From positions 7,767-47,493 of the forward strand of contig CAZFBZ010000001.1 in assembly GCA_964517345.1 (NCBI GenBank): a stretch of 39,727 nt of DNA. The letters run 5' to 3'. Below, piece by piece: positions 5,569 to 39,359 of the stretch (its first letter is position 1; each line of letters opens with the position of its first letter). Source of the stretch: an uncultured Candidatus Peribacteria bacterium (lineage in GTDB: Bacteria; Patescibacteriota; Gracilibacteria; Peribacterales; Peribacteraceae). A model generated the notes under the pieces. That model made no database searches. It was given only the letters and a program-made list of their open reading frames with translations, and was not told the DNA's origin. The position numbers and the translations under genes were made by a program.

Positions 5569-6996
<1,428 letters not shown>

Positions 6997-7465: not shown

Positions 7466-7474
7466 GCCGCAGTC

Positions 7475-7783: not shown

Positions 7784-7865
7784 CCCGCAGTCGCGGGTTT
7801 TGCTCCAGTCAGAGTGACGTCTTAGGCCATTGACAGGGACTCACCTCTGCCTCACCCTCCGAACC

Positions 7866-8666: not shown

Positions 8667-8701
8667 TCTTGACCGGGCAGAGTGCCCGCCTAGACCCTTG
8701 A

Positions 8702-9031
<330 letters not shown>

Positions 9032-9087
9032 TCGGCGCACACCTTTTGTCTTCTCTTCCGGCCTGACCGCCGGTTCCCCTTCCTCCC

Positions 9088-9953: not shown

Positions 9954-9975
9954 CATCCCCCACCCCCATCCGCTT

Positions 9976-11508
<1,533 letters not shown>

Positions 11509-11534
11509 GCTCCTCCTCCACCGCACTACCTCCC

Positions 11535-12544: not shown

Positions 12545-13444
12545 ATGTGCCTCATGCGTCAGATGGTGCAACTGGGCCGTGATGACATTGAAGTGGAGCG
12601 CGAAGGGGATCCCGACGGCGAAAAAGTGCTTTTCACGCACGGTCTTCCGGGCACCGCCCTGGAGATCGCCATTGCCAGCGCACTGGCCCGCAGAGGCGGC
12701 TATGAGGTGCTCGGCATCAGCCGGCGGGGGTACGGCCATTCCCGCTACCGGCCGACGTCCCTGGTTGAAACGGCTCGAGAGACGCCAAAGATCCTGGAGA
12801 AAATCGGGGTGAAAGATCCCGTGCATGCCATTGGCGTGTCTGCGGGCGGTGTCTATACGGCGGCGCTCGCACATGAGTGCCCCGATGCCCTCAGGTCGGT
12901 CACGCTGGTGAGCGCGCTGGCGCCTCCGGATCAGCCGGGCGTGATGGACCGGATGAACTGGAGTCACTATGCGATCCTCGGGCTCGCACGCAAGCTTCCC
13001 GCCTGTTTCCTCTCGCCCATTCTCTACTTCATGCGTCATCGGGCACTCAAGAACCCCGATGCACTGCTCCACCAGGTGAGGGACGAAGCGCCTCCGGGCG
13101 ATCAGGAGGTTCTGCGTGTCCCTGCCAACCACGAAGTATTGCGCCAGTCACTCATCCACGCGCTGCGCTGCGGATACAAAGGTCTGATGCAGGATATTCT
13201 CAATCTTGCGGGGCCATGGGGGTTCGATCCCAAAGACATCAAGCCGCATGTGGAGGTCTGGCACGGTACCGATGATCTGATTGTTCCCAAGGAGAGCGGC
13301 GTGTACTACGGCAGTTCACTGAATTCCAAGAATCTGCATATGCTCGATGGCCGCGGGCATTTCATCGGCGCGGATGAGGCGGTTCTGGAGCAGATCCTCA
13401 CTACCGCACGGGACCGGTGCGCGGTTGGTACAACGGCTATTTAG
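12545..13444 (+). CDS. alpha/beta-fold hydrolase
   Basis: Nucleophile elbow GVSAGG. Candidate Asp in WHGTDDLIVP and candidate His in GRGHF. The start is ambiguous (ATG at 12545, 12554 or 12563). A TACGAT box at 12541-12546 favours 12554. Confidence 0.8.
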   Translation: MCLMRQMVQLGRDDIEVEREGDPDGEKVLFTHGLPGTALEIAIASALARRGGYEVLGISRRGYGHSRYRPTSLVETARETPKILEKIGVKDPVHAIGVSAGGVYTAALAHECPDALRSVTLVSALAPPDQPGVMDRMNWSHYAILGLARKLPACFLSPILYFMRHRALKNPDALLHQVRDEAPPGDQEVLRVPANHEVLRQSLIHALRCGYKGLMQDILNLAGPWGFDPKDIKPHVEVWHGTDDLIVPKESGVYYGSSLNSKNLHMLDGRGHFIGADEAVLEQILTTARDRCAVGTTAI

Positions 13445-18273: not shown

Positions 18274-18918
18274 TTATCCAGCAGGCTTTTTTCCGCAGTC
18301 CTTCCCGTATGATTGATTCTTGCTGACGCGGTCGAGCATCACGGCCATCTCGGCCCGGTTCACCGGATCATTGGGGCGCACCGCGCCGGTTGTAGCGTCT
18401 CCGGCGAGAATGCAGCGATCCGCGGCCGCCTGCACGCCGTAGGAGTACCAGCTGCCTGGAACCGTATCGATGAACGGGGGAGCGGCGTCGGTTTTCTCCA
18501 GTACGAAGATGCGGGTGATGAGCACGGCGGCTTCCGCGCGGCTGATGCGGTCGTCGGGACGTGCAAGGCACGGATGCTCGCCGTAGCAGTTGCCGTCGCC
18601 GCGCACCCAGCCCTGGCGGGCCGCCTCCTCTATTGTCGCGTAATGCCAGTCGTCAGGGGCACTGTCGTCGAAGCTCTGGAGCAGGGGCGGCTGCTGCGGG
18701 GATGTCCCGCTCACGGCCAACGTGAGCTTCAAGAACTCTGCGCGCGTTGCCGGGCTCCCGGGACGGAAGGTTTTTTGCGAGGCATCGAGTGCGCCTTTTG
18801 TCTGCAGCGAGGCGAGTGCCGGCGCGTACCAGGCGTCGCCGGGCACGTCCGCATACCCCGCAGCGAAACCGAGGGAGGGGAGCAGGAGAAGCGAGAGTGC
18901 GACTGATCGCTTACGCAT
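18274..18918 (-). CDS. secreted protein with three S-layer homology (SLH) domains
   Basis: ORF 18274..18954 trimmed to the ATG at 18918, giving signal peptide MRKRSVALSLLLLPSLGFAAG. Three SLH repeats: YADVPGDAWYAP..ATRAEFLKL, FDDSAPDDWHYAT..ISRAEAAVLI, FIDTVPGSWYSYG..VNRAEMAVML. Confidence 0.8.
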   Translation of the reverse strand: MRKRSVALSLLLLPSLGFAAGYADVPGDAWYAPALASLQTKGALDASQKTFRPGSPATRAEFLKLTLAVSGTSPQQPPLLQSFDDSAPDDWHYATIEEAARQGWVRGDGNCYGEHPCLARPDDRISRAEAAVLITRIFVLEKTDAAPPFIDTVPGSWYSYGVQAAADRCILAGDATTGAVRPNDPVNRAEMAVMLDRVSKNQSYGKDCGKKPAG

Positions 18919-18972
18919 GGAAATGACCGTACCAGCGCGTGACGGGCGGGGCAAAGTACAGTCTGCTTAACG

Positions 18973-23620: not shown

Positions 23621-25141
23621 TCAGCGGATGTCCTCGCTGTTCTGCGTGACGGCTTTCTTGGTCAGGAAGATCGACAGGAAGTTGACGCAGTAGATCCAGC
23701 CCATGAGCAGCAGCCCGCGGGAGGCGAAACGCCGTCCCGAAGAGTAGACGAAGAACCTGAATGAAAATTTGATTTTGCCGATGTCCCGGAGCCTGCGCGC
23801 TGTGGAGGCGTCCTCCCCGTAGAAATCGATCGAGGTGTCGAAGCCGCCCATCGTCATCAGCGCTTCTTTTTTGGCGACGAAGTTGCCGCCAACGACCTGC
23901 GTTCCCAGCAGGGAACTGAGCCGGTACAGAACCTTCCAGGAGTACCAGATGAACCGGCGGCGCACGTAGGACAGATCATAATAATCATAGGGGCCGCTGA
24001 GGCAGATGAGCGTGGGATCGCGCTTGAACTTCTCACGGATGACGTCGAACCAGCTGTCGGGCAGTTGGGTGTCTGCGTCCAGCGAAGCGTAGAAGTTTCC
24101 CCGCATTTCCGTCAGTCCGCGCTGGCGCGCGTAGGGCAGGCCTTTTTGGGGTTCGTAGATAACGCGGACCTGCGGGAACGATTTGGCGATCTGAGCGGTG
24201 CCGTCGGTGCTCGCATTGTCGACAACAATCACCTCCAGCAGTTCGGGATGGCGCTTGCGGAAAATACTTTCCAGGCAGGTGCGGATATAGCTTTCCTCAT
24301 TGAAGGCGGGAATGATGATGGAGATGCGCATCGGTTCCGAGCTGGGAGGCGCTTCAGGCCTCCAGGGGACGCCGGAGAGCCAGTAGAGCGGTTTCTGAAA
24401 GCGGTGCGGGACAAAGCCGATGACGAGCGAGGGCAGCGAGAACACGATGATGCCGACGACGAACCAGAACTCGCGGACGGGCAGGCCGACGAACAGGATC
24501 GGCAGCATCAGCACGAACGGCAGCGCCTGCAGAGCCACAAGCGCCGGCATCGTGTACGACTTCAGCGTCGGGCGGTTCGACGAGCCGGTGCGTTTCTCCA
24601 GCATGCGCCGTTGAACGCTGAACTGCGTACAGAGCAGGAACACGGCCAGGACCGTGCCGCCCATCCACGGCGTGCCGGCGATCGCCATGCCCAGGATGCA
24701 GCGCAGGGCGTGAGGCAGGGCGTTCGCTGCGAATTCGATATACGGCCAGCGCTTGGCTCCCAGGCTGTACAGTACGTTTGCGAGGATAAAGAGAATGAAC
24801 AACAGGAAGATGTTGTAGCCCAGGAAGGCATGTGCGTAGGACAATCCCGCGACAATACTGAACGCCACGTACAGCCATGCCTGCCACAGCCTCACGCGGC
24901 CCGAGGCGATCGGCCGGTGACGCTTCGCCGGATCTTCGCGGTCCAGTGAGACGTCGGCGATGTCGTTGAGTGCATACAGGCCTCCGTACAGAATGATATT
25001 GAACCCGATGTAGACAATCGCGAGACGGGGCAGCAGCTCCAGCAGCGGCATCTTGCCGAGCAGGATCGCCGAGGCGATAACCGTCGCGTAGTTGAAATGG
25101 CTGTGGAAGCGGATGAAGCCGAGGATGTCCCGAAGTTTCAT
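23621..25141 (-). CDS. fusion protein: N-terminal UbiA-family polyprenyl transferase domain plus C-terminal GT2 (GT-A) glycosyltransferase domain
   Basis: ORF 23621..25255 trimmed to the ATG at 25141 (MKLRDILGFIRF..). The UbiA part (about 25141-24332) is polytopic with the first Asp-rich motif YALNDIADVSLDREDPAKRHRPIASG. The GT2 part (about 24331-23621) has ISIIIPAFNEESYIRTCLESI..VIVVDNASTDGT and ASLDADT. It is one uninterrupted frame. Confidence 0.85.
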   Translation of the reverse strand: MKLRDILGFIRFHSHFNYATVIASAILLGKMPLLELLPRLAIVYIGFNIILYGGLYALNDIADVSLDREDPAKRHRPIASGRVRLWQAWLYVAFSIVAGLSYAHAFLGYNIFLLFILFILANVLYSLGAKRWPYIEFAANALPHALRCILGMAIAGTPWMGGTVLAVFLLCTQFSVQRRMLEKRTGSSNRPTLKSYTMPALVALQALPFVLMLPILFVGLPVREFWFVVGIIVFSLPSLVIGFVPHRFQKPLYWLSGVPWRPEAPPSSEPMRISIIIPAFNEESYIRTCLESIFRKRHPELLEVIVVDNASTDGTAQIAKSFPQVRVIYEPQKGLPYARQRGLTEMRGNFYASLDADTQLPDSWFDVIREKFKRDPTLICLSGPYDYYDLSYVRRRFIWYSWKVLYRLSSLLGTQVVGGNFVAKKEALMTMGGFDTSIDFYGEDASTARRLRDIGKIKFSFRFFVYSSGRRFASRGLLLMGWIYCVNFLSIFLTKKAVTQNSEDIR

Positions 25142-25145
25142 CGTG

Positions 25146-25604
25146 TCAGCGGAGAAGGAAGGACGCAGTCGCGACAGCAATGATGCCGCCTGCCAGAGCG
25201 CCGCCGATGACATCGTGCAGATGGTGGTGGCCCAGGCGGATCCGCGACCAGGCAACCCCGAGGACGATGGCGGCTGACAACCATGAGAGCAGCATATCCG
25301 GATGCACCAGCGAGAACGAGACGGCGAAGGCCGCGGCGCGCGCGGTGTGGATGCTGGGGAAGCTGCCGGCGTCGTAGCGGCCGTAGAGGCCTTTGTCTGG
25401 ACGCGGGATCGGGCGGGCGGTGGGATAAATCACTTTGAAGGCGCCGCAGAGAACCTCCGTGAGCAGCAGCGAGCCCAGTACCGGCATCCAGATACCGCTG
25501 ATGAGCCGTTCCAGCAGCAGTGCCGCGGGCAGATACACCGTCATCGTTCCGAAGGACGTGATTTCGGACGCGAACGTGTCGATAAGAGAAGATCGTGCGG
25601 TCAT
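25146..25604 (-). CDS. PAP2-superfamily (acid/lipid) phosphatase, membrane-bound
   Basis: 152 aa. All three PAP2 motifs are present: KVIYPTARP (KxxxxxxRP), FPSIHT (PSGH-like) and SRIRLGHHHLHDV (SRxxxxxHxxxD). Its stop lies 4 nt before the UbiA::GT2 start. Confidence 0.85.
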   Translation of the reverse strand: MTARSSLIDTFASEITSFGTMTVYLPAALLLERLISGIWMPVLGSLLLTEVLCGAFKVIYPTARPIPRPDKGLYGRYDAGSFPSIHTARAAAFAVSFSLVHPDMLLSWLSAAIVLGVAWSRIRLGHHHLHDVIGGALAGGIIAVATASFLLR

Positions 25605-27868: not shown

Positions 27869-30800
27869 TCAGGCGGCGGTGCCAGTGGTCGCCGGGGGCG
27901 GCGAATCCGGGGCTTTGGGCTCGGTGAGGCTGTCGGCACGGACCACGAAGGCCACATCGCTGTCCTTCTTCTTTTGGGGTTCAACGGGAACGGGAGCGGG
28001 TTCTGCTTTCAGGATCGGCTTTTCTTCCATCACAGGCTGGGCCGGGGGTGTGACGACCGGTTCAGGTTTCTTGTCCGCGGCGGGCGCCGGTGCGGGATTG
28101 GCAGCGATGTTAACCGGAGCAGGCGCAACAGGAGCCGGGCTCGGAGCAGGAGTGACGGGTGCGGGGGCAGGGGATGGAGCGGACGGGGTTGCGGGCGATG
28201 TCGGCGGAGTCAGGGGGGTGCCCGGAGTGTCCGGTGCATCGGTGCCGTCTTCGTCATCATCCGTATCATTGTTTGCGGGCGCACCCGGAACTCCAGCAGC
28301 CGCTTGTTCCTTGCGCTTGCGCTGGTTCTCGCGATAGCGCATGCGCTTCCTGCGCTTGCGTTCCTTCTCGCGCTCGATGCGTTCCAGATCCTCCTTGGAG
28401 ATGGCTGTTGGCGCGGCAGGAGCAGCAGCTGTCGTCGACGCAGGAGCGACTGCCTTCTGCATCACCGGAGGAGCCATTTCTTTTTTGACCTGCGCAGGAG
28501 CGCTGGGAGCCGGCTGAGACTGCACGGGCGGTGCAGCCTGGATTGTCGGCTTCTCTTCTTTCTTTTCCGGCGCCGGAGTCGCGTTCACGACCGGAGGCTG
28601 AACCGGCGCGGGTGCCGACTGCTCAGGCTTCTTGTCGATGACCGGAGCCGGAGCCGGTGCGGGTTCCGGTTTCTTCTCGACGATCGGCGCGGGCGCAGGC
28701 GTCGGGTCCGGCTTTTTTTCCACGACCGGAGCAGGCGCTGCGGGCGCAGGTTCGATCTTCGGCTCAGGCTTCTTCTCCACGACCGGCGGGGGAGTGGTCG
28801 GCAGGGGAGTCTCGGTTTTCACCTCCGGTTTGGGCTCGGGTTTTTTCTCAACGACCGGTGCCGGAGCCGGCTCGGCACTCGCGGGAGGTGGCGCAGGAGG
28901 CGTCGGCGTTGTAGCAGGCGTTTCTTTCTCCAGCCCCTTGCGAAGCCACGGTGGCGTGTCATCGGCCGGAGCGGTGTCTGTGGGGGGCTCTTTGCCCGGA
29001 GCCGCAACGGCCTTCTGCGAGAGTGCGGCGAGAGCCGCATCGGGAGGCGGCGGCGGAGCGTCGGTTGTTTTCGGTTTGGTCGTCTCCAGACCTTTCTGCA
29101 GCCAGGGCGGAGTGCTGTCTGCGGATGCCGAGGGTGACGGAGCGCCATCTGCTGGTGCAGAGGCGGCGGGAGGCGGCGGAGGCGGGGGGCCGGACTCCAC
29201 GGGGGTCTTCTGTGCATCGTCCCGCAGCCAGGGCGGAAGCGAATCTTCTTCCGACGGGAGAGCCGGTGTCGGAGGTTCCACTTTCGGCTCGGGCGCAGGC
29301 GCGGGTGCCGAAGCAGGAGCAGACACTGTCGTCGCAGGAGCGGCAGCCGTGACAGGTTCAGTGCGGGGCTCAGGGGCAGGGGCCGGAGGTTCGATTTTCG
29401 GCTCCGGCTTCGGCTCCGTTTTTTTCTCAGGCATCGGAGCGGTCTTTGGCGTCGGCGTCGGAGCGGGTTCTTTTGACGCCGCGGGAGCCGGTGCGGAACC
29501 GTCGGACGACAGGCCTTTCTTCAGCCAGCTCGGTGCGGCCTTTACGTCGACGAAATCGCTCGGCGGGGGCGTCAGTGCTTTTTCTTTCTTCTTCGGGGGT
29601 GTCGGTGCCTCGTCTTCGCTCGGCTTCTCGCTGGGGGTGGAGCGCTTGAGTTCAAGCAGCGGCGCGGCGGATTCGACGATCTCGGTAGGTGTGCCCTCTT
29701 TTTTCTTTTTGTCCGTGATTGTGGCATCCAATCCGTCGCCACGACGGATCAGACGCATGATGCCTGCGACGAGCACGACTCCCAGAAGCAACGCACCCAG
29801 TCCGACGCCAAGAAGCTTGGCAATTGACAGGAGCGTGCCGCCGATTCCCCCGCCGGACGGTGCTGGAGCGGATGGTGCGCTTGACGACGAGGCTGCGGCT
29901 GCGGATGCCGAGGAAACCGTGGAGCCCGTTGCGGCAGCGGCGCCGAGTCCCGAGAGCGAGATGGTCTTGGTCCCCTGTGAGATGATGCGAGCGGTGGTGA
30001 TGTTGCGCACAGTGACGGTAACGGTGTAGTCCCCGTCAGAGCGGTAGGTATGCACCGGCTCCGTGATGAGGCTCTGCGTGCCGTCGCCGAATTGCCAGTG
30101 GTAGAGAAGTTCGTTCGCGTTCGCCCCGACGAGCGGGAATATGAAGCCGATGTCCCCGCTGCCGCGGTTATCGATGCCGATCGTGCCGGGGATCTGGTCC
30201 GTTGGAAGCTCCGGTGTTCCCGCCCCCTCGTCGGGCGTGCCGTCCGGTCCCGGCGTTCCATCCGGATCCGGGGCGGGTTCGGCGTCGGTCGGGATAATGG
30301 CAAGCGACTGCTGCCGTCCGTCTTCGGCAAAGAGACGCATGGACCGCTCCGTTCTGTGGACGAGCCACAGGTGCAGGGCGTTCCCGTTCGTGCGGAAGAA
30401 CGCCTGGGAGTTGTCCTGGTCGTCCGCGGCTTCGCCGTTGCCGTTCGTGTCGCGGTTCGTATCCGTATCCAGATTGATCGCCCCCTCCGGCGCGAGTGGC
30501 GGCGTCAATTTGACGATGCTGCGTCCTGCGGGGAGTTCGATGCGTCCGTCGACAGATGAGGGATCGGTTGTGACGAGAGCGCCTTCCGGAATCTCCACTG
30601 CTTCCTCCTGAGTGTTACGGGGCTCGACGGTGACGTTGATGATCTTGCGTACATGATCCCCTGTCTGCGGAAAATCCGCGGATGCGTCGATCTGATACTC
30701 GCCCGGTTCCGTCAGGCGCAGACGGAACAACGGCTCCCGTCCGGCTTCCACGAAATTACGGTCTTTGGTCACAATCCAGCTCAGCTGCACTGGCTCGTTG

Positions 30801-30943
30801 TCGATCAGTGCGAGCGCCTCAAATACCTCGCCTGCGGCGAAGCGGACGGTTTCCTGGTCGATCTCGTTCTGCGCCTGAGCCAGCGGCAGAGCCGCCAGAA
30901 GCGGCAACGCGAGGCCGGCGAGGAGAGCGGGCAGACGGCGCAT
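27869..30943 (-). CDS. large single-pass membrane protein: signal peptide, extracellular Ig/PKD-like region, TM helix, approximately 625-aa Pro/Ala/Lys/Glu-rich low-complexity tail
   Basis: 1024 aa. Signal peptide MRRLPALLAGLALPLLAALPLAQA. PKD-type motif YHWQFGDGTQSLITEPVHTYRSDGDYTVTVTV (about 29954-30160). TM LLSIAKLLGVGLGALLLGVVLVAGIM (about 29750-29842) followed by RLIRRG..DKKKK. The tail carries 4 PPWLxKGL-type motifs, 5 VVEKKPEP repeats and a KR-rich helix. Confidence 0.85.
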   Translation of the reverse strand: MRRLPALLAGLALPLLAALPLAQAQNEIDQETVRFAAGEVFEALALIDNEPVQLSWIVTKDRNFVEAGREPLFRLRLTEPGEYQIDASADFPQTGDHVRKIINVTVEPRNTQEEAVEIPEGALVTTDPSSVDGRIELPAGRSIVKLTPPLAPEGAINLDTDTNRDTNGNGEAADDQDNSQAFFRTNGNALHLWLVHRTERSMRLFAEDGRQQSLAIIPTDAEPAPDPDGTPGPDGTPDEGAGTPELPTDQIPGTIGIDNRGSGDIGFIFPLVGANANELLYHWQFGDGTQSLITEPVHTYRSDGDYTVTVTVRNITTARIISQGTKTISLSGLGAAAATGSTVSSASAAAASSSSAPSAPAPSGGGIGGTLLSIAKLLGVGLGALLLGVVLVAGIMRLIRRGDGLDATITDKKKKEGTPTEIVESAAPLLELKRSTPSEKPSEDEAPTPPKKKEKALTPPPSDFVDVKAAPSWLKKGLSSDGSAPAPAASKEPAPTPTPKTAPMPEKKTEPKPEPKIEPPAPAPEPRTEPVTAAAPATTVSAPASAPAPAPEPKVEPPTPALPSEEDSLPPWLRDDAQKTPVESGPPPPPPPAASAPADGAPSPSASADSTPPWLQKGLETTKPKTTDAPPPPPDAALAALSQKAVAAPGKEPPTDTAPADDTPPWLRKGLEKETPATTPTPPAPPPASAEPAPAPVVEKKPEPKPEVKTETPLPTTPPPVVEKKPEPKIEPAPAAPAPVVEKKPDPTPAPAPIVEKKPEPAPAPAPVIDKKPEQSAPAPVQPPVVNATPAPEKKEEKPTIQAAPPVQSQPAPSAPAQVKKEMAPPVMQKAVAPASTTAAAPAAPTAISKEDLERIEREKERKRRKRMRYRENQRKRKEQAAAGVPGAPANNDTDDDEDGTDAPDTPGTPLTPPTSPATPSAPSPAPAPVTPAPSPAPVAPAPVNIAANPAPAPAADKKPEPVVTPPAQPVMEEKPILKAEPAPVPVEPQKKKDSDVAFVVRADSLTEPKAPDSPPPATTGTAA

Positions 30944-30948
30944 GTTTC

Positions 30949-31326
30949 TCAGATGAAGTTGCCGGAGGAGATGAAGCCCACCACGGCGCGCGCGAAGAAA
31001 ATCACGAGCAGACCGATGATGGCAAACAGGATGATCGACTTGGCTTTGGTCTTGGAATCATCCGAGCCCTGTCCGACAATCAGATAGATACCAGCGATGA
31101 CGATGACGACCACGGCGGCGAGCGCCATGAAGTTCAGCACCTTGCGCATGAGGTCGACAACGGCTTCGCGCAGGGTCTTTTTCACCGGACCCTGGATGTT
31201 GCCGGCCTCGCCGACGCCGCCTTCCAGACCGGGACCGTCGAAGACCTGTGCGTGAACCGGCACAACCGCCGAGAGCGGCATGCAGAGCGTCGCAAGCATT
31301 GTCAGCGACAAGAGCAGGTGTTTCAT
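30949..31326 (-). CDS. TrbC/VirB2-like (T4SS pilin-like) small secreted membrane protein
   Basis: 125 aa. Signal peptide ..PLSAVVPVHA, then two hydrophobic helices (FMALAAVVVIVIAGIYLIV and IILFAIIGLLVIFFARAVVGFI) joined by the short charged loop GQGSDDSKTKAKS. This is the VirB2/TrbC architecture. Its stop lies 5 nt before the start of the 1024-aa gene. Confidence 0.55.
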   Translation of the reverse strand: MKHLLLSLTMLATLCMPLSAVVPVHAQVFDGPGLEGGVGEAGNIQGPVKKTLREAVVDLMRKVLNFMALAAVVVIVIAGIYLIVGQGSDDSKTKAKSIILFAIIGLLVIFFARAVVGFISSGNFI

Positions 31327-31355
31327 ACGTGTGAGGAGTAGGTGTTTTCGCTTCT

Positions 31356-31364
31356 ATTATAGCA
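31356..31364 (-). promoter_or_regulatory. extended -10 box TGCTATAAT upstream of the pilin-like gene
   Basis: The minus strand reads tgctataat. The approximately 22-nt leader contains cctactcctc but no GGAGG. Confidence 0.45.
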
Positions 31365-31395
31365 GAAAAACCTGTTTCGATCTATACTCTCCGTC

Positions 31396-32388
31396 ATGCG
31401 TCCGACCACCCCCCGCCAGCTTCTGGCACAAGCCCAAACGCCCGCCTTGCTCGTCTCCGATCCACTCTCGATCCGTTTTTTGACGGGTTTACGGCTTACA
31501 GCAGGGCTCCTGCTCATACTGCCACGCCGGGCATTGCTCTTCGTTGACGCGCGCTACACCGATGCCGCTGAGCGCTTCGCCCAGGGGGTCACGGTCCGGG
31601 AGTTCGGGGAGCTCGGAAAAATCCTGGAAGACGTGCCGGTTTGCGGCATCGAAGCTGAAGAGGTCACTGTTGCCCGTCTTGTTTCTTGGAAGAGGAAATT
31701 CAAGAATACAAAATTTGTTCGTACAGTTGGGGCGGTGGGCGCCTTTCGAAGACAGAAGACCGACCACGAACTGCGCTCGCTTCGTCGGGCGCACAAGATC
31801 ACCGGTGAACTGCTCCGTCGCGTGCCGTCGGCATTGCGCAAAAACATCACCGAAGACGGCCTTGCCCGGAAGCTTCTGCAGTGGGCCCTCGAACTTGGTG
31901 CCGATGGCCTGGCGTTCGATCCCATTGTCGGCTTCGGCACTCACACCAGTAGCCCGCATCATAGCCCCACATCGCGCGCACTGAAGCCCGGACATGTTGT
32001 GCAAGTCGACGTCGGCGCACGTGTGGACGGCTACTGCGGCGATCGTAGCGAGGTCTATTTCACCGCGCCGCCGACGCCGCTGCAGCGCCGCATCTATCAG
32101 ACACTATGCCTCGCGAAAGACCGCGCGATGAAAGCGGCGAAAGCCGGCGTCACCAATCATCAGCTGGATAAAATTGCACGCGATGTCCTGCGCAAAGAGG
32201 GCCTCGATGAGGTCTTCACGCACGCACTCGGACACGGTGTGGGACTCGAAGTGCACGAGGGTATTACGCTCTCGCAGAAGGCACCCAAGACAGAACTGCT
32301 ATCGCGTGAGGTCATTGCCATTGAACCCGGAGCGTACTTCCCAGGGCGGTTCGGCATGCGCGTCGAGGATATGGTCTTCGTCGAATGA
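31396..32388 (+). CDS. M24B family Xaa-Pro peptidase
   Basis: 330 aa. Pita-bread metal ligands in VQVDVGARVDGYCGDRSEV, HALGHGVGLEVHE and EPGAYFPGRFGMRVEDMVFV. A TATACT box at 31383-31388 lies 8 nt before the ATG. Confidence 0.88.
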   Translation: MRPTTPRQLLAQAQTPALLVSDPLSIRFLTGLRLTAGLLLILPRRALLFVDARYTDAAERFAQGVTVREFGELGKILEDVPVCGIEAEEVTVARLVSWKRKFKNTKFVRTVGAVGAFRRQKTDHELRSLRRAHKITGELLRRVPSALRKNITEDGLARKLLQWALELGADGLAFDPIVGFGTHTSSPHHSPTSRALKPGHVVQVDVGARVDGYCGDRSEVYFTAPPTPLQRRIYQTLCLAKDRAMKAAKAGVTNHQLDKIARDVLRKEGLDEVFTHALGHGVGLEVHEGITLSQKAPKTELLSREVIAIEPGAYFPGRFGMRVEDMVFVE

Positions 32389-32508
32389 CCACTTTTTTGT
32401 CTGCCTGATGGGCTCTTCGTGAATCATGAGTGTGGCAAAAGAATTGCTATTTACAATATCATTAGACGTATTTGTCACTATGTGACCTCAGACAGATCCA
32501 GATTTTTT

Positions 32509-32517
32509 TGCTACAAT
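32509..32517 (+). promoter_or_regulatory. extended -10 box TGCTACAAT, 11 nt upstream of the ATG at 32528
   Basis: Read directly, preceded by a T7 run. It is identical to the box at 1786. Confidence 0.45.
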
Positions 32518-32527
32518 ACTCGGAACT

Positions 32528-33919
32528 ATGCGCAATACACACACCAACATTTTTGCTTTTATCATGGGCTCCATCGGTATTCCAGCTTTTCTGCTGACAG
32601 CGACTGTTGCCCATGCTGTTGCAGAAAATCCGTTCACGGCGGGCATACCCTTTGAGCAGGATCTCGTGATCACCGCTTATTACTCACCGCTCCCGGATCA
32701 GTGTTGCTACGTAAAGGGGAGTTTTGAGGATGATGTCATTCTCAATGGCGAAGGGCACCATGGCGCCGACGGGACTGCGGTGTATCCCGGCATGGTTGCC
32801 GCCCCGCCCCGGTATCCCTTTGGCACACGCATTGTCGTGCCCGGCATCGGCACGGTGACAGTGCATGATCGGGGAGGCGCGATTCAGGAACAGCAGAAGA
32901 GCCATCGTCTGGACGTGTGGGCAGGCGTCGGCGAGGAGGGTCTTGCCCGTGCTCTTGCCTTCGGCGTGAAGCGCGTTCGCGCGACTGTCTACCCTCCGGG
33001 CACTACGCAGCCTGCCGAGGAAATCGCCCTCGATGCCCTGCCCGCCCCTTTGCAGATTCTTCAGCCGTATGCCATTGGCGGATCTGTGCTTGCGCGTCTG
33101 CGCGCGACGTTCGGTTCGCAGAGTCTGAGCGCGCTGCTCGTCCAAAAATTTCTCGTCGAGATGGGTTACATGAATGAGAAAGCCACCGGCTACTTCGGCC
33201 AGGCCACGCGTTCCGCGTTGGCGGCGCTCTATCGCGATCTCGGCTTGGAGGAAAGTCCCGATGCCGTCACCGAACGCTCTGCCGCATTCCTGGAGGCGCT
33301 CCGCCGCCAGCAGGGGGCGAAAGAGCCGCTGCCCGCGATTGTCGACGCCACGAGTCCGCGGTCGCATATCGCTGAAGTCCAGCGCACGATGCGGTTTCTC
33401 GATCTCTACCGCGGACGCACCAGCGGCCACTATGACGACACCCTCTTCCGCGCCATCGCCAATTTTCAGAAGAGCGCCGGACTGATCGCCGATGATTCCT
33501 CGCCCGGCGCGGGACGCATCGGGCCCAAAACGCGCATGCTCCTCGCGTCGGCCTGGAAGCGCCGCATGGTGAGCCAGAAGGCGGAGCACATCCTGATGGT
33601 CGCTGAAATCGAGCGCATTGCGGCAAAACGCATGGGCATCACCGCATTCTTTGGCTTCGGGCAGAAAGGCGATCAGGTGAAGGTGCTCCAGCGGCTGCTG
33701 GCCTCGGCTGGTCTGCTGCCTGCGGATCAGGTGACGGGCCTGTTTGGCCCTATGACGCAAAAAGCCCTCGTCGCGTTCCAGATGAATGCCGGCATCATCA
33801 CGTCCGCATCCGATGATGGCGCCGGATACGTCGGGCCCGCCACGCTCGCCCGCGTCCGCACCGGAATGCGCGATCATCTCTACCGCCTCGTCCGCGCCCA
33901 GGGCTGGGACGCCCTCTGA
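32528..33919 (+). CDS. secreted cell-wall protein: 3D (MltA/YuiC-like) domain plus three PG_binding_1 repeats
   Basis: 463 aa with a signal peptide (..LLTATVAHA). 3D-type segment ITAYYSPLPDQ..NGEGHHGADGTAVYPGMVAAP..PFGTRIVVPGIGTVTVHDRGGAI..RLDVWAG. Three repeats of the type VQKFLVEMGYM..ATGYFGQATRSAL, VQRTMRFLDLY..SGHYDDTLFRAI and VKVLQRLLASAGLL..VTGLFGPMTQKAL. Confidence 0.8.
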   Translation: MRNTHTNIFAFIMGSIGIPAFLLTATVAHAVAENPFTAGIPFEQDLVITAYYSPLPDQCCYVKGSFEDDVILNGEGHHGADGTAVYPGMVAAPPRYPFGTRIVVPGIGTVTVHDRGGAIQEQQKSHRLDVWAGVGEEGLARALAFGVKRVRATVYPPGTTQPAEEIALDALPAPLQILQPYAIGGSVLARLRATFGSQSLSALLVQKFLVEMGYMNEKATGYFGQATRSALAALYRDLGLEESPDAVTERSAAFLEALRRQQGAKEPLPAIVDATSPRSHIAEVQRTMRFLDLYRGRTSGHYDDTLFRAIANFQKSAGLIADDSSPGAGRIGPKTRMLLASAWKRRMVSQKAEHILMVAEIERIAAKRMGITAFFGFGQKGDQVKVLQRLLASAGLLPADQVTGLFGPMTQKALVAFQMNAGIITSASDDGAGYVGPATLARVRTGMRDHLYRLVRAQGWDAL

Positions 33920-33938
33920 TTTTTTCCCGCACGTACCC

Positions 33939-34505
33939 ATGACTCCGACCGTCGTCCTCTATACCGATCTGTTCCTGCGCATCGTCGTCTCCGCTCTTCT
34001 CGGCGGCGCGATCGGCCTGGAACGTGTCTGGCACGGGCGGCCCGCGGGCCTGCGGACCAATATGATGATCGCCATCAGCTCGTGCTTGTTCACGATCCTG
34101 TCGATCTACGGATTCCCCGACGGTCCGGGGGTGGACGCTTCGCGCGTCGCCTCGCAGATCGTCGTCGGCGTGGGATTCCTCGGAGCCGGAACGGTGCTGC
34201 ATAACAACCATCACGTTCTGAACCTCACGACCGCGTCCACCATCTGGCTGGTCGCGGCCATCGGCATGGCCGCCGGCGTCGGCATGTATCTGCTTGCCGG
34301 TGTGGTCACGCTGCTCGCCGTCATCTCGCTCTCGTTTTTTGCGCCGCTCAGTGATTGGCTGAGTCACCACGCCGAACAGCACGCGCGCCGCAAGGGCGTC
34401 AAGATCGTCCACGAGGACTCCGGCGTGCATTTCGTTGCGCATCCCGCGCACCATCGCGCGCGGCATCGCAAGGAGCCCTTGGACGAGAGCATTGCCAAGG
34501 ATTAA
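33939..34505 (+). CDS. mgtC: MgtC/SapB family membrane protein
   Basis: ORF 33786..34505 trimmed to the ATG at 33939. RIVVSALLGGAIGLERVWHGRPAGLRTNMMIA and GVGFLGAGTVL are typical of MgtC. Confidence 0.85.
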   Translation: MTPTVVLYTDLFLRIVVSALLGGAIGLERVWHGRPAGLRTNMMIAISSCLFTILSIYGFPDGPGVDASRVASQIVVGVGFLGAGTVLHNNHHVLNLTTASTIWLVAAIGMAAGVGMYLLAGVVTLLAVISLSFFAPLSDWLSHHAEQHARRKGVKIVHEDSGVHFVAHPAHHRARHRKEPLDESIAKD

Positions 34506-34562
34506 CGGAAAAGAGCGTCCGCCGGTTGCGCGGAGGCCTGGTTTGAGGAAGCATGAGACCCT

Positions 34563-35645
34563 ATGCGTCGTGCTATTGCCTTCCTGTGTCTCGCGCTTTC
34601 GTGTGCGCCCCCCGCGTTCGCCGCGGCTCCCGTGACGCGCCTCGATGGCTTCGTACAGATCTGGGACAGCATCCGGCGTCCGGCTGGTGACCCCCACGGT
34701 TACTTCTTTGACGACGTTCCCAAAGGCAGCAGGGGATCGGAGCAGGTGCTCTTCGCGCTCTACCGCGGAGTGATCGATAATGATGGTGATCTCTTTTATC
34801 CCGACGAGCCGCTGACGGCGTACCAGGCGTTGCTGTGGATCTTCCGGACGCGCAGTGTCGATGAGGAGGGCCTGTTCCCGGAGAAGGGCGAATCGATGGA
34901 CCCGGCGGTTGTCACCAGGATCGCGATGCGCATGGGCCTCGCGGAGTATCTGACCGGTGACGGCGGCGACATGAGCGTGTCGCGGCGGACCCTCACGCAG
35001 GAGGATGTATTCGCGATGATGCGGCGCGTCGATGCGATCCTGGCGGAAGAAATCCACGAAGCGAGCCTCTATTCCGAGAAATTCCAGGGCAAGGGCACAG
35101 CTTTCGGCGAGGCGTTTGACATGCATCAGCTGACTGCCGCGCATCGCACATTCCCGTACAACACGCTCGTGAAAGTGACCAACGTCGCCAACGACAAGAG
35201 CGTGATCGTGCGCATCAACGACCGCGGACCGTTCGTGAGCAAACGCGATATCGACCTGAGCCTCGCGTCCTTCCTGCAGATCGCCGACCGCGCGCTCGGC
35301 AAGATCAACGTGCGCTTCCAGCGTCTCGGCGACGTCAACCTCGTCGGGCAGTGCAGCACCGACAGAGGCATGCAGATGCGCATTGCCGGCAAGATTCGCC
35401 TCATACCGGGCCTGCCGTTGACGTCGCCCGCGGGCGAACCGATCACCTTGGCAGCCAACGGGCCCTTCGTCGTGCTTAAAGTGACGTATCCGGACGGGAC
35501 GGAATCGTGGCTCCAGGATTGGATACTGCCCTCGGAGAGCTACGTGCTGCGGCCCGCAGTGGATGGGCGATATACGTTCTTTGTCGGTACCGCCGACGGG
35601 CGCCGACGGGCGCTGGTCACGACTGTCGTTTCCTGCTCGTCCTGA
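34563..35645 (+). CDS. rlpA: RlpA-like (DPBB_1 double-psi beta-barrel) lytic transglycosylase-like lipoprotein/secreted protein
   Basis: 360 aa with signal peptide MRRAIAFLCLALSCAPPAFAAAP. DPBB core EASLYSEKFQGKGTAFGEAFDMHQLTAAHRTFPYNTLVKVTNVANDKSVIVRINDRGPFVSKRDIDLS. The N-terminal region is SLH-like (FFDDVPKGS..LTAYQALLWIF). Confidence 0.8.
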   Translation: MRRAIAFLCLALSCAPPAFAAAPVTRLDGFVQIWDSIRRPAGDPHGYFFDDVPKGSRGSEQVLFALYRGVIDNDGDLFYPDEPLTAYQALLWIFRTRSVDEEGLFPEKGESMDPAVVTRIAMRMGLAEYLTGDGGDMSVSRRTLTQEDVFAMMRRVDAILAEEIHEASLYSEKFQGKGTAFGEAFDMHQLTAAHRTFPYNTLVKVTNVANDKSVIVRINDRGPFVSKRDIDLSLASFLQIADRALGKINVRFQRLGDVNLVGQCSTDRGMQMRIAGKIRLIPGLPLTSPAGEPITLAANGPFVVLKVTYPDGTESWLQDWILPSESYVLRPAVDGRYTFFVGTADGRRRALVTTVVSCSS

Positions 35646-35689
35646 GGGTTTTTGGGCCTCTTGCGTCGCTGGCTTGAGGCGGGTTTTTC

Positions 35690-35698
35690 TGCTATAAT
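35690..35698 (+). promoter_or_regulatory. extended -10 box TGCTATAAT upstream of the coupling-protein-like gene
   Basis: Read directly, about 37 nt upstream of the GTG at 35735. Confidence 0.4.
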
Positions 35699-35734
35699 CT
35701 AAGGATTTTGTAGTATCTTCTATTCCCGCGATCC

Positions 35735-38344
35735 GTGTTCACTTTCCTGCGCGTCTTCCTCTGGCCGATCATCTGGGTCACCGTGATCCTGGTGGGTGAG
35801 CTGTTGCGCATAAACGTGCTCGGCGCGTTTTGGGGGTGGTTCATCCAGAACCCGATTGAGAACATCTTCCTGCTGCTCACGATCTGGTTGATCTGGGGCA
35901 TCATCAAATTCAATATCCGTTTTACCTACGCTTGGTGGATGTCCCGCAAGCTCGTCTGCATGAAAGTCATGCTCCCGCGCAGCGACAGCAAGATCGATCA
36001 GGAGAAGCGCACTGAAAAAGATTTCAAAGAGAAGGTCGCGCTCATGGAACAGCTCTACCGCGCGCTGTGGGAAGTGCGCAGTCTCACCTTCTGGCAGTTC
36101 GTGCACTTCTGGATGTTCCGCTACGCCACGATGAGCTTCGAGACGTTCATCGAGAAAGGCGAACTGCAGTTCTATGTCCTCACGCTGCCGAGCCTGGTTT
36201 CCATCGTGGAGAAGCAGATCACCGCGTTCTATTCGGACGCCGAGGTATCCGTGACCAAGGCTCCTGACGTCTGGCCCAAAGGCTACAAGCTTGTGGGCTA
36301 CAACATGCTCGTCAAAAAGAAGTACATCTTCCCGATCCGCTTCTACGAGGAAATGCAGGATGACCCGCTCAACGACATCGCGAACGTGATGAGCAAGCTG
36401 GATACCGACGAGCGCGCTTCCGTGCAGGTCGTCATCACGCCGTGCTTCTCCGACAAGTGGAGCCGTGCGGTGAAGCGTTATGCGAGCTTGAAATTCAAGG
36501 GCAAAGAAGACAGCTGGGTCGCACGCATCCCGATCCTCTCGACATTCATCCGCGTCCTCAGCGGCGTGGCAACCGGCGGCGACGGCGAGACGTTCGCGCC
36601 CGGTGCGGCCCACGGCGACAGCTTCGTCCGTATGATCCAGCCGGAGGAAGAGCTCTACAAGCGCATGGGCCAGAAGGCCGGCATGAGCGGCTTCGACGTT
36701 TCGGTGCGCATCATGGCCGCAGCCAAAACCTGGAAACGCGCCATCGACATCACCAACAACATGCAGGTGGCCTTCAACGTCTACAAAGACATCTACGGCA
36801 ACTGGCTCGCCAACCGCCGCATGATTCTGGAGTTCATGCCCTTCGCGTGGAATGCCCCCATGATCTACTGGCTGTGGAAGCACCGAATCAACGGCTATGC
36901 GCACCCCACGAACCTCATGGTCGAGAAGGAGCTGGCCGGCCTGTATCACTTCCCGGACAGCCGCTACAACAAGATCCCGGTCATTCAGTGGATCACGTAC
37001 AAAGTGCTGCCCCCTCCGCCGAATATTCCCAAGGAGGGCGTGCTGCTCGGCCTCAACAAGTACCGCGCCGAGGAGACGCAGATCCGCTTCCTCCACGGCG
37101 ACCGTACACGCCACGAGTACATCATTGGAAAATCCGGTTCGGGTAAATCCGCGCTTTTGAACTTCCAGGCGCGTCAGGACGTGTCTGACAACGAAGGCCT
37201 CTGCGTGGTCGATCCGCACGGAGACCTGATCGAAGACATCCTTGCGCACGTGCCCAAGGAGCGTGCCAAGGACGTCATCCTGTTCGACCCGTCCGATATT
37301 GACCGCCCCATGGGCCTGAACCTTCTTGAGGCAAAAACCGACGAAGAGAAAGACCGCGCGTCACTGGACGCGATGGAAATCTTCATCAAGCTCTTCGGTA
37401 ATGAGATCTTCGGTCCCCGCATCCAGCACTACTTCCGCAACGGTTGTCTGACCCTGATGGACGACGAGGAGGAGGGCGCCACGCTCATCGACGTGCCGCG
37501 CCTCTACGTGGACGACGAGTTCCAGCGCTACAAGGTGAGCAAGTGCAAGAACGTCGTCGTGCGCAGCTTCTGGGAGCATGAAATCGCCAAGACCGGCCAG
37601 CGCGAAAAAGAGGAAATGATCCCGTACTTCTCGGCCAAGTTCGGTCCCTTCGTGACCAACACGACGATGCGCAACATCATCGGACAGCCGAAGAGCGCCT
37701 TCCAGGTCCGCGAGGTCATGGACACGGGCAAGATCCTCCTGGTCAACCTCTCCAAGGGTAAGATCGGCGACGTCAACGCGCAGCTGCTCGGCCTGATCTT
37801 CGTCAACAAGGTGAACATGGCGGCCCTCTCGCGCGCAGACATGCCGCAGAAAGACCGCAAGCGCTTCTACCTCTACGTCGACGAGTTCCAGAACTTCGTC
37901 ACCGACGCTTTCGCCACGATCCTCTCCGAAGCGCGTAAGTACGAGCTCGGCCTGATCATGGCCCACCAGTACATCGGCCAGCTCGTCGGCAAGACCGGCG
38001 ACTACGAGCAGTCGTCCACGAAAATGCGCGACGCCGTTTTCGGTAACGTGGGTACCATCCTCAGCTTCAAGATCGGCGCCGAGGACGCCGAGTACATGGC
38101 GAAAGAAATGGCGCCGGTACTCAGCGAACAGGACGTGATAGGCATTCCGAACTTCAACTGCTATGTGAAGCTGAACATCAACAACACGACCAGTCGTCCG
38201 TTCAGCATGGCGACGATCTACGACGAGTCCAACCGCAACGACAAGCTCGCAGCGCTCATCAAGGAATACAGCCGCATGAAGTACGGCCGCAAGAAGATTT
38301 TCGTCAACCAGGAGATCGAGGACCGCATCGGTATCACGCGCTAA
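35735..38344 (+). CDS. VirD4/TraG/TraD-like type IV secretion coupling-protein-like ATPase with a long uncharacterised N-terminal domain
   Basis: 869 aa with a GTG start. Two N-terminal TM helices. Walker A IIGKSGSGKSALL (about 37127-37150), then VVDPHGD and Walker B FYLYVDEFQNF (about 37870). TraG-D_C-like LSEARKYELGLIMAHQYIGQL. Confidence 0.75.
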   Translation: MFTFLRVFLWPIIWVTVILVGELLRINVLGAFWGWFIQNPIENIFLLLTIWLIWGIIKFNIRFTYAWWMSRKLVCMKVMLPRSDSKIDQEKRTEKDFKEKVALMEQLYRALWEVRSLTFWQFVHFWMFRYATMSFETFIEKGELQFYVLTLPSLVSIVEKQITAFYSDAEVSVTKAPDVWPKGYKLVGYNMLVKKKYIFPIRFYEEMQDDPLNDIANVMSKLDTDERASVQVVITPCFSDKWSRAVKRYASLKFKGKEDSWVARIPILSTFIRVLSGVATGGDGETFAPGAAHGDSFVRMIQPEEELYKRMGQKAGMSGFDVSVRIMAAAKTWKRAIDITNNMQVAFNVYKDIYGNWLANRRMILEFMPFAWNAPMIYWLWKHRINGYAHPTNLMVEKELAGLYHFPDSRYNKIPVIQWITYKVLPPPPNIPKEGVLLGLNKYRAEETQIRFLHGDRTRHEYIIGKSGSGKSALLNFQARQDVSDNEGLCVVDPHGDLIEDILAHVPKERAKDVILFDPSDIDRPMGLNLLEAKTDEEKDRASLDAMEIFIKLFGNEIFGPRIQHYFRNGCLTLMDDEEEGATLIDVPRLYVDDEFQRYKVSKCKNVVVRSFWEHEIAKTGQREKEEMIPYFSAKFGPFVTNTTMRNIIGQPKSAFQVREVMDTGKILLVNLSKGKIGDVNAQLLGLIFVNKVNMAALSRADMPQKDRKRFYLYVDEFQNFVTDAFATILSEARKYELGLIMAHQYIGQLVGKTGDYEQSSTKMRDAVFGNVGTILSFKIGAEDAEYMAKEMAPVLSEQDVIGIPNFNCYVKLNINNTTSRPFSMATIYDESNRNDKLAALIKEYSRMKYGRKKIFVNQEIEDRIGITR

Positions 38345-39062: not shown

Positions 39063-39359
39063 ATGGTTTCCTTCTCTCAAGCCAAAGACATGTTCCGCAT
39101 GCAGCGGGACGCCAAGCGCATTAAGAAAGAGCTGAAGAACATCCACGTCGAAGCCGAGGCCCAGGGCGTGAAGGTCACCGTGACCGCCGAGCAGGAGATT
39201 CTCTCCATTGAGATCGCTCCGGACGTTCCGCGCGAACAGCTGCCGATGCTTCTCAAAGACGCCCTCAACCGCGCGCTGAAGAAGGCGCAGGTCATCTCCG
39301 CCGAACGCATGCAGGGCCTGATGAGTGAGATGGGCATGACCATGCCCGGCCAGCAGTGA
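39063..39359 (+). CDS. ybaB: YbaB/EbfC family nucleoid-associated DNA-binding protein
   Basis: 98 aa. The pattern ..MQRDAKRIKKELKNIHVEAEAQGVKVTVTAEQEILSIEIAPDV....LLKDALNRALKKAQ is typical of YbaB. Confidence 0.85.
   Translation: MVSFSQAKDMFRMQRDAKRIKKELKNIHVEAEAQGVKVTVTAEQEILSIEIAPDVPREQLPMLLKDALNRALKKAQVISAERMQGLMSEMGMTMPGQQ

Follow-up and report, generated by a model that had tools for sequence, protein, structure and literature searches.

Whether genes related to type IV secretion systems (T4SSs) that lie side by side in a small bacterial chromosome form one apparatus is the question raised by a 10.5-kb stretch (nt 27869-38344) of a 39.7-kb window, the window being the whole DNA analysed here (39,727 nt) from an uncultured Candidatus Peribacteria bacterium. 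The stretch encodes a VirB2-like pilin, a PKD-domain membrane protein, wall-directed and housekeeping proteins, and an ATPase of the type IV coupling protein (T4CP) kind; each gene that an earlier, sequence-only reading had named is present where it had been placed. That reading proposed a minimal T4SS-like module. The comparisons described below favour a different answer: the stretch probably holds three unrelated kinds of gene that adjoin through lineage-specific synteny, with the pilin and the ATPase representing dispersed parts of the T4SS already known from Patescibacteria and not a self-contained apparatus. The genes concerned are:

27869-30943, minus strand: 1024-aa bitopic membrane protein with a PKD domain, second gene of the pilin operon (Pfam and hydropathy)
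30949-31326, minus strand: 125-aa pilin of VirB2/TrbC architecture (PF18895 and hydropathy)
31396-32388, plus strand: 330-aa M24 Xaa-Pro peptidase, divergent from the pilin gene (Peptidase_M24 185.9 bits, Creatinase_N 48.5 bits)
32528-33919, plus strand: 463-aa 3D/peptidoglycan (PG)-binding wall protein, anchored or secreted (PG_binding_1 83.1 bits, three repeats)
about 33936-34505, plus strand: MgtC-family membrane protein (MgtC 130.3 bits)
34563-35645, plus strand: 360-aa RlpA-family lytic transglycosylase-like protein (TIGR00413 rlpA 113.1 bits, cut-off 82.15)
35735-38344, plus strand: 869-aa membrane-anchored ATPase of coupling-protein type (Pfam)

Synteny and gene content of the locus

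Gene order was compared over 80 Peribacteria loci, in which the succession of PKD-protein and pilin genes, then M24, 3D/PG, RlpA and ATPase genes and, further on, the gene for YbaB recurs and is kept in most. Upstream of the ATPase, RlpA is retained within 2.5 kb in 52 of 62 loci, the 3D/PG protein in 49 of 55, the M24 peptidase in 40 of 55 and the pilin in 39 of 55. Downstream, the unrelated nucleoid protein YbaB is retained in 51 of 54 loci, and HisRS and GyrB likewise stay in place. As YbaB, HisRS and GyrB are retained at least as well as the pilin, the conservation is that of family-level synteny; the genomes are closely related and broadly syntenic, and conserved adjacency therefore has little functional weight. 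The arrangement is shared by descent and thus counts as one event. All 333 related stretches derive from Peribacteria or Peregrinibacteria metagenome-assembled genomes (MAGs), and the ATPase encoded by one uncultured Peribacteria MAG (L001) is 99% identical to that of the window.

The linkage breaks outside this set. In four lower-GC Peribacteria (L039, L041, L065 and L068), the ATPase gene follows a CheY-like receiver gene and rpsB/tsf or GlyRS, and the pilin, RlpA and 3D genes were not found within 10 kb of it. In nine distant contexts (33-47% identity, including Wolfebacteria), the ATPase gene stands solo among ribosomal, tRNA-synthetase, replication and wall-synthesis genes. Conservation of the neighbourhood, which the sequence-only reading had made a test of its proposal, therefore holds for most of the 80 Peribacteria loci and is lost both in other Peribacteria and among other candidate phyla radiation (CPR) classes.

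The core genes of a T4SS are likewise missing nearby. Domain scans detected no VirB3, VirB4, VirB6 or relaxase in the window; the earlier observation that VirB4, VirB6, VirB8-10, relaxase and integrase are lacking is confirmed, such domains being absent from every plausible open reading frame (ORF). Co-localised VirB4 and mating-pair formation (MPF) genes, the logic of CONJScan and TXSScan, do not occur within the window. A phmmer search with two plasmid VirB4 queries against every ORF of 250 aa or more in 92 related loci recovered only T4CP-family ORFs, its sensitivity being limited to those two queries, and these loci yielded no VirB4-class ATPase at a distance of up to about 10 kb from the ATPase. 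VirB4, VirB3 and VirB6 were not found in the flanks of 41 pilin-bearing loci either, and pilin paralogues gave no route to a VirB4 cluster, with 18 homologues found and the three contexts examined proving to be the same locus. Relaxase or T4SS genes near the ATPase were found neither in the window nor in the Peribacteria or distant loci. With this core absent, housekeeping neighbours equally syntenic and the linkage broken elsewhere, the claim of one minimal T4SS-like module is not upheld; in small, highly syntenic genomes, closeness of T4SS-family genes does not make a module unless set against a synteny baseline.

The 10.5-kb stretch is native Peribacteria chromosome. GC content is uniform across the window (0.56-0.66) with no compositional island, as had been proposed, and a chromosomal locus without relaxase or integrase is borne out by this composition, by the housekeeping flanks and by the domain scans. 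A mobile-element origin was rejected on the same grounds.

Relation to the published T4SS of Patescibacteria

The class Gracilibacteria, as defined in GTDB, includes Peribacterales. Of 3,035 Patescibacteria genomes, 2,417 encode VirB4 (Quinonero-Coronel et al. 2025, PMC12102498). VirB2-like pilins, recognised by PF04956 and PF18895, occur in 1,948 assemblies in arrays of 2-11, and 5,713 VirD4-like T4CPs are distributed across 2,918 genomes, near virB4 in only 148 (PMC12102498). Relaxases are almost absent from Patescibacteria, and T4SS parts are dispersed in class Gracilibacteria (PMC12102498); a 2025 review gives the same picture (PMC12857230). The T4SS is essential in Southlakia epibionticum (Wang et al. 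2023, as cited in PMC12857230), and elsewhere is described as essential in one cultivated Patescibacteria species, with a function that is 'completely unknown' (PMC11665869).

The window locus resembles this system in its chromosomal location, absence of a relaxase, PF18895 pilins, pilin arrays, a T4CP away from virB4 and dispersed parts. It differs from the full Patescibacteria T4SS in that VirB4, VirB3/PrgI, TrsD and VirB6 are not in the window, so that its membership of the full system is putative. The locus is a further instance of the catalogued VirB2-like pilins and unlinked VirD4-like ATPases, and no new kind of system. The suggestion of a chromosomal, non-conjugative T4SS in episymbiotic bacteria was thus right in kind, and already published (PMC12102498; PMC12857230), whereas its local, minimal form does not stand. 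No Peribacteria entries were found in the available part of the supplement of PMC12102498, and the available text of PMC12102498 and PMC12857230 describes neither the coupling of pilin and PKD-protein genes nor the DUF8128 domain of the T4CP.

If the pilin and the ATPase are dispersed parts of this T4SS, the pilin would be inserted by Sec, lose its leader and pool in the membrane as a two-helix hairpin, from which it would be drawn out and polymerised by a VirB4-powered T4SS core, derived from the MPF-FATA type, whose genes would lie in another part of the genome. The PKD protein, produced at a constant ratio to the pilin, would serve the filament as a surface adhesin or anchor, and the ATPase, as a TrwB-like membrane hexamer, would spend ATP pushing a DNA or protein substrate towards the channel. 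The M24, 3D/PG, MgtC and RlpA genes would be ordinary envelope or housekeeping genes, with RlpA, 3D/PG and MltG acting in general wall turnover. Most worth following are the operon of pilin and PKD-protein genes, the likeness of DUF8128 to VirB4 and the fact that a solo T4CP is conserved to a housekeeping grade.

Several points weigh against this interpretation. It places VirB4, VirB3, TrsD and VirB6 elsewhere in the genome, as their phylum-wide prevalence would suggest. The T4CP homologue of S. epibionticum was reported as not essential (PMC12102498), which weakens the assumption that the ATPase works with the T4SS. The chance of a pilin lying within 5 kb of a T4CP is estimated at about 2% per genome (assuming about two T4CP genes and a genome size near 1.2 Mb), and the 4.4 kb that separates them here is improbable by chance alone in one genome. 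The M24, 3D/PG, MgtC, RlpA and ATPase genes are co-directional and separated by 16-139 nt, which makes a common transcript running from M24 to the ATPase possible, and terminator-like sites 3' of the 3D/PG and RlpA genes are weak and no commoner than in shuffled sequences. The promoter and terminator scan as a whole gave counts not above shuffles (3 vs 2.2 and 15 vs 10.3 +/- 3.1) and therefore does not define operons. Finally, the window sequence is contained in wastewater and sludge metagenome runs, and those listed are DNA only, with no RNA run among them to lend expression support.

The ATPase and its possible stand-alone role

The ATPase gene encodes the following elements:

about nt 35738-35917, plus strand: two transmembrane (TM) helices (hydropathy and AlphaFold2 (AF2) model)
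about nt 35942-37024, plus strand: DUF8128 (PF26449) N-domain (precomputed on orthologues)
about nt 37028-38224, plus strand: T4CP ATPase domain
nt 37127-37150, plus strand: Walker A motif (G465/G468/K471)
nt 37880-37891, plus strand: Walker B motif (D716/E717)

Judged by sequence, the ATPase is of the VirD4/TrwB (T4CP) lineage. Three T4CP models exceed their cut-offs (PF02534 with 32.4 bits against 20.1, PF10412 with 27.5 against 20.5 and PF12696 with 23.0 against 22), and G465, G468, K471, D716 and E717 are invariant across 49 homologues; the description of a VirD4/TraG-like ATPase with Walker A and B motifs thus stands, with the catalytic motifs intact. Compared with PDB sequences, the ATPase profile matches TrwB (5.7e-8), DotL (2.1e-5) and HerA (1.1e-3), with FtsK and VirB4 absent from the same comparison. 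The AF2 model (pLDDT 83) comprises two to three N-terminal helices (residues 2-24, 27-38 and 40-70), a mixed alpha/beta N-domain (about 70-430) and a RecA-like domain into which a helical block is inserted (about 536-664). In Foldseek, its C-terminal half aligns on TrwB with a TM-score by target (TMt) of 0.65-0.68 and a root-mean-square deviation (rmsd) of about 4.8 Å, and on HerA with a TMt of 0.51-0.53. A grouping with FtsK/HerA-type housekeeping translocases, which would have overturned the earlier assignment, was rejected, as FtsK is unmatched and HerA falls behind TrwB and DotL by sequence and by fold.

The T4CPs TrwB (of R388), VirD4, DotL and Cag-beta share with the window ATPase two N-terminal TM helices and a RecA-like domain with an all-alpha insertion. 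The window protein differs from TrwB in that its TM helices and ATPase domain are separated by an additional DUF8128 domain (about 360 aa), in an identity of about 15%, in the absence of an adjacent relaxase or T4SS and in its housekeeping-grade conservation. By analogy with TrwB, it may act as a substrate-recruiting hexamer.

This conservation underlies the alternative that survives best, although we regard it as rather unlikely: that the DUF8128-T4CP ATPase no longer serves any T4SS and that exaptation has turned it into a near-housekeeping membrane translocase acting on its own (e.g. of DNA in replication, segregation or division), its closeness to the pilin being irrelevant. Median identity across Peribacteria is 73.5% for the ATPase, near the values for HisRS (78%) and GyrB (80%) and far above those for the pilin (44%), RlpA (46%) and the PKD protein (30%); between Peribacteria species, ATPase identity is 70-85% (window vs L002-L080). 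At E<=1e-30, the family comprises 5,199 clusters (50% identity), a very large number. T4CP-like genes, found in 2,918 of 3,035 Patescibacteria genomes, are commoner than VirB4 and rarely near virB4, and exaptation has been raised by the authors of that survey, as the T4CP homologue was reported as not essential in S. epibionticum, unlike other T4SS genes (PMC12102498). The same dispensability is, however, odd for a housekeeping protein, and the closest relatives outside the CPR lie in conjugation clusters. Genes for DnaX, YbaB, FtsQ-type POTRA proteins, YceG/MltG and MreBC-PBP2 recur as neighbours across lineages, although this recurrence is anecdotal, drawn without statistics from nine contexts, in small genomes where such genes abound. 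Conservation near that of aminoacyl-tRNA synthetases in a usually solo gene suggests a role beyond, or instead of, classical substrate coupling, and together with family size and the recurrent dnaX, YbaB, FtsQ and MltG neighbours leaves room for a T4SS-independent role. A broader proposal, that the DUF8128-T4CP is near-universal in the CPR and under constraint of housekeeping grade, has kept an ancestral VirB4-like N-domain and works either as a stand-alone translocase tied to dnaX-ybaB/FtsQ/MltG or as motor for the Peribacteria pilin-PKD operon, is doubtful to a similar degree.

Several features of the ATPase neighbourhoods in relatives are recorded here. In many bacteria, dnaX (DNA polymerase III tau/gamma) and ybaB form one conserved operon. 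In Peribacteria, the YbaB gene (window 39063-39359) lies downstream of the ATPase, and dnaX lies 1.5-5 kb from the ATPase in L085 (17625-19325), L092 (14048-15784) and L093 (14394-16265). Other recurrent neighbours are FtsQ-type POTRA genes (L085, L093), YceG/MltG (window end, L081-L083, L094) and MreBC-PBP2 (L089). The receiver-only genes of the lower-GC Peribacteria stand directly upstream of the ATPase (L039 9441-9833, L041 9408-9833, L068 9489-9905, and L065 9168-9989 with a double receiver), and a histidine kinase and response regulator lie downstream of it in L094 (12532-14947). In six distant lineages, including Wolfebacteria, a small gene encoding 101-162 aa without a Pfam match ends just before the start of the DUF8128 ATPase (L084 9602-9997, L085 9479-9967, L087 9620-9934, L089 5914-6288, L092 9690-9995, L093 9574-9999), from a 1-nt overlap in L089 to a distance of 66 nt in L087. 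The N-terminal parts of the products are acidic or disordered, and the window has no such gene. These genes were rejected as a conserved partner of the ATPase, as only the L084 and L093 products are similar (28% over 47 C-terminal residues). In L088, a distant relative, an ORF downstream of the ATPase (12873-13343) contains in-frame TGA codons under table 11, and translation of the ATPase gene does not give the query protein; both would fit an alternative genetic code, which some Gracilibacteria use.

The wall enzymes and the case for a single apparatus

Domains within the two wall enzymes are:

about nt 32804-32941, plus strand: 3D-like (MltA-type DPBB) domain of the 3D/PG protein (19.9 bits, under the cut-off of 23.8)
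nt 35061-35318, plus strand: DPBB domain of RlpA (DPBB_1 76.7 bits)

RlpA has a signal-peptide-like N-terminus and the 3D/PG protein an N-terminal hydrophobic segment (both by hydropathy). The RlpA-like DPBB protein of the sequence-only reading is supported by both TIGR00413 and DPBB_1, while of its 3D/PG-binding protein the PG_binding_1 part is firm and the 3D part stays below the Pfam threshold. VirB1-type hydrolases (SLT lysozyme-like, or CHAP or NlpC/P60 in monoderms) resemble these enzymes in being secreted or anchored, directed at peptidoglycan and able, in principle, to open the wall. SLT/lysozyme-like, CHAP and NlpC/P60 domains were not found in the two window enzymes, which instead belong to the DPBB-fold RlpA and 3D (MltA/YuiC-like) families and carry PG_binding_1 repeats. 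The RlpA and 3D families serve septal and growth-related wall turnover and are not VirB1 families, and a third wall gene of lytic-transglycosylase kind, YceG/MltG, lies at the window end. The VirB1-type role assigned to the two enzymes is therefore not retained.

The M24 peptidase and MgtC are interspersed as described earlier. The peptidase, in which no signal peptide was seen by hydropathy, is a housekeeping enzyme outside any secretion system. MgtC is present in seven of 80 related loci, in four of them on the opposite strand, and is a variable insert within the gene array.

These findings bear on the possibility that the pilin, PKD protein, wall enzymes and ATPase constitute one minimal T4SS-like apparatus for attachment or DNA uptake, in which RlpA and the 3D protein replace VirB1 and the ATPase is the sole motor; we judge it distinctly improbable. 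The arrangement is indeed kept in most sampled Peribacteria, but so are the unrelated YbaB, HisRS and GyrB genes, and neither other Peribacteria nor any of the nine distant contexts keep the linkage. Short gaps join the co-directional 3D/PG, RlpA and ATPase genes, yet MgtC comes, goes and is sometimes inverted inside this array. The closeness of pilin and T4CP is unlikely by chance in one genome, but no VirB4, VirB3 or VirB6 lies in the window and no VirB4 was detected within about 10 kb of the ATPase in the 92 loci. No T4SS is known to build a VirB2 pilus with only a T4CP. In Patescibacteria, VirB1 may be substituted by other glycosidases, and VirB4 is the sole universal T4SS protein (PMC12102498). 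RlpA and 3D are housekeeping DPBB families.

The pilin and the PKD-domain protein

Within the two minus-strand genes, the following elements are recognised:

nt 31249-31326, minus strand: pilin leader, residues 1-26 (hydropathy)
nt 31075-31131, minus strand: pilin TM1, residues 66-84 (hydropathy)
nt 30979-31035, minus strand: pilin TM2, residues 98-116 (hydropathy)
nt 30872-30943, minus strand: signal peptide of the PKD protein
nt 29996-30121, minus strand: PKD domain, residues 275-316 (PF18911 PKD_4 43.8 bits)
nt 29759-29815, minus strand: TM helix of the PKD protein, residues 377-395 (hydropathy)
nt 27872-29745, minus strand: Pro/Ala/Lys/Glu-rich low-complexity tail of about 630 aa, residues about 400-1024

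The pilin gene(s) and the PKD-protein gene are translationally coupled and represent the one firm unit of the locus. In the window, the PKD-protein gene begins 5 nt past the pilin stop, and the genes are co-directional in 41 of 41 related loci, where the ORF gap has a median of -1 nt. The pilin matches PF18895 (T4SS_pilin) with 30.3 bits (cut-off 26.6, E 4.4e-7) over profile positions 4-71 of 71, and its hydrophobic stretches span residues 4-26, 66-84 and 98-116, the charged loop GQGSDDSKTKAKS joining the two helices. The signal-peptide-like first stretch is predicted to be a cleavable leader. PF18895 above its cut-off and the topology of leader and two helices bear out the VirB2-like pilin of the sequence-only reading, which had named pilin profiles as a check; PF18895 passed, though PF04956 gave no match.

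The conjugative pilins VirB2, TrbC and TraA are, like the window protein, of about 100-130 aa, with two hydrophobic helices that follow a long leader and are joined by a short charged loop. Unlike them, the window pilin does not match PF04956, has no adjacent VirB3 or VirB4, belongs to a monoderm host and is co-translated with a PKD protein. Between one and about five pilin copies, some apparently fused, occupy this site in relatives, a variable copy number that resembles published VirB2 arrays (PMC12102498). Multi-pilin sites are seen in L063 (4363-6390), L049 (5410-6369), L071 (4021-4698), L073 (5092-5727), L057 (4867-5972) and L081 (9536-10387), either as tandem genes or as single long ORFs scoring as several fused pilin domains; in L063, a 675-aa ORF scores 382 bits with the pilin, an apparent fusion that could be an assembly or frame artefact.

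It is very unlikely that the 125-aa protein is instead a small two-TM partner of the PKD protein and not a pilus subunit, its PF18895 match reflecting shared topology. The match lies just 3.7 bits over the cut-off (E 4e-7), short hydrophobic hairpins are prone to composition-driven matches, PF04956 is unmatched and T4SS core genes are absent nearby. However, all 18 of 18 database homologues independently carry PF18895, an NCBIfam model for pilin-like conjugal transfer proteins weakly matches the same region, the leader and two-TM layout is that of VirB2, and the variable, tandem or fused copies recall the published arrays.

The PKD protein is conserved only in its N-terminal 330-400 residues, at about 30% identity, and orthologues range from 528 to 947 aa. 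Its tail contains a strongly basic stretch (KERKRRKRMRYRENQRKRKEQ), and a tandem-repeat scan of this Pro-rich gene returned one weak 18-nt array only, the tail being of low complexity without a clean repeat. Basic residues directly after the TM helix suggest, by the positive-inside rule, a cytoplasmic tail, an unusual feature in a 'surface' protein. Of the 'giant surface protein' proposed earlier, a large membrane protein of 1024 aa therefore remains, with most of its mass in a low-complexity tail, hardly 'giant' in that sense, and this tail predicted to be cytoplasmic. Always co-translated with the Peribacteria pilin, it is a concrete candidate for a pilus-associated adhesin or anchor. In one Peregrinibacteria lineage (L082/L083, 13271-13570), a small GIY-YIG/T5orf172 nuclease-like ORF and tiny ORFs lie between the PKD-protein gene and HisRS.

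The DUF8128 N-domain, VirB4 and plasmid homologues

The DUF8128 N-domain, for which a literature search yielded no paper, seems to resemble only the N-domain of VirB4, a moderate but specific likeness drawn from structure models. Modelled alone (residues 61-440, nt 35915-37054, plus strand; pLDDT 85.6), it matches 14 TrwK/VirB4 chains in the PDB with E 4.5e-6 to 3e-3, the next match being at E 0.02; these alignments have low TM-scores (TM-score by query (TMq) 0.38-0.44) and rmsd values of 7-12 Å. The VirB4 profile hidden Markov models (HMMs) AAA_10, P-loop_TraG, CagE_TrbE_VirB and TraC_F_IV do not match the ATPase at E<=0.01.

A tblastn search recovered homologues outside the CPR in plasmids of Embleya, Streptomyces and Bacillus. 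Those of Embleya (NZ_CP108778) and Bacillus subtilis (NZ_CP032854), which carry DUF8128/DUF87 annotations, are homologous over the full length, including the N-domain, at 25-26% identity, and the family profile A1 scores 363 (Embleya) and 299 bits (B. subtilis plasmid) on these proteins, which are encoded beside Replic_Relax genes. The same plasmid clusters hold PrgI or TcpE, NlpC/P60 and a separate AAA_10/P-loop_TraG VirB4, on which profile A1 scores 21 bits or nothing and which does match VirB4-class HMMs. The homologues are thus plasmid-borne, in a conjugation cluster beside a relaxase-like gene, whereas the window ATPase is chromosomal and solo. As they lie beside relaxase-like genes and VirB4 is separate, the ATPase falls in a T4CP subfamily of monoderm conjugation systems. 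This link agrees with the MPF-FATA origin published for the Patescibacteria T4SS, and a CPR 'T4CP' subfamily with a VirB4-like N-domain, whose relatives occupy the coupling-protein position in monoderm clusters, supports that monoderm origin.

That the ATPase is itself a VirB4 equivalent, a VirB3-VirB4-like fusion that joins two TM helices to a VirB4-like N-domain and an ATPase domain, extracting and polymerising the neighbouring pilin, is the least credible of the explanations considered: TrwK/VirB4 takes the top rank for the full model in Foldseek (E 1.6e-13), the isolated N-domain model matches only TrwK/VirB4 chains, and length and a Walker A motif near residue 470 fit VirB4 proportions, but the TM-scores of these matches are low (0.25-0.31 at full length, 0.38-0.44 for the N-domain), no VirB4 Pfam family is matched at E<=0.01 while three T4CP families exceed their cut-offs, TrwB (6e-8) and DotL (2e-5) lead the PDB sequence comparison with VirB4 absent, the ATPase domain fits TrwB (TMt 0.65-0.68), and the plasmid homologue sits beside a relaxase-like gene and coexists with a true, separate VirB4.

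Other genes of the window

Profile scans show that the rest of the window consists of ordinary chromosomal genes, encoding a ProRS-like synthetase, PrsW and S41 proteases, a full F-type ATP synthase set, a P-type ATPase, an S-layer homology (SLH) protein, GyrB, UDP-galactopyranose mutase, glycosyltransferases, HisRS, tRNA-His, YbaB and YceG/MltG. The beta-epsilon pair of ATP synthase is usually terminal in gene order. In the window, the synthase genes (5626-12467, plus strand) run beta, epsilon, AtpI-like, a, c, b, a short delta (120 aa), alpha and gamma, with the beta-epsilon pair standing ahead of the remaining subunit genes. The SLH protein (18274-18954, minus strand) has 226 aa and two SLH repeats (59.7 bits). 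A 544-aa fusion of a UbiA prenyltransferase domain and a family-2 glycosyltransferase (GT2) domain (23621-25255, minus strand) adjoins genes for a PAP2 phosphatase, a GT4 glycosyltransferase and the UDP-galactopyranose mutase, and the group looks like an envelope glycolipid or glycopolymer cluster.

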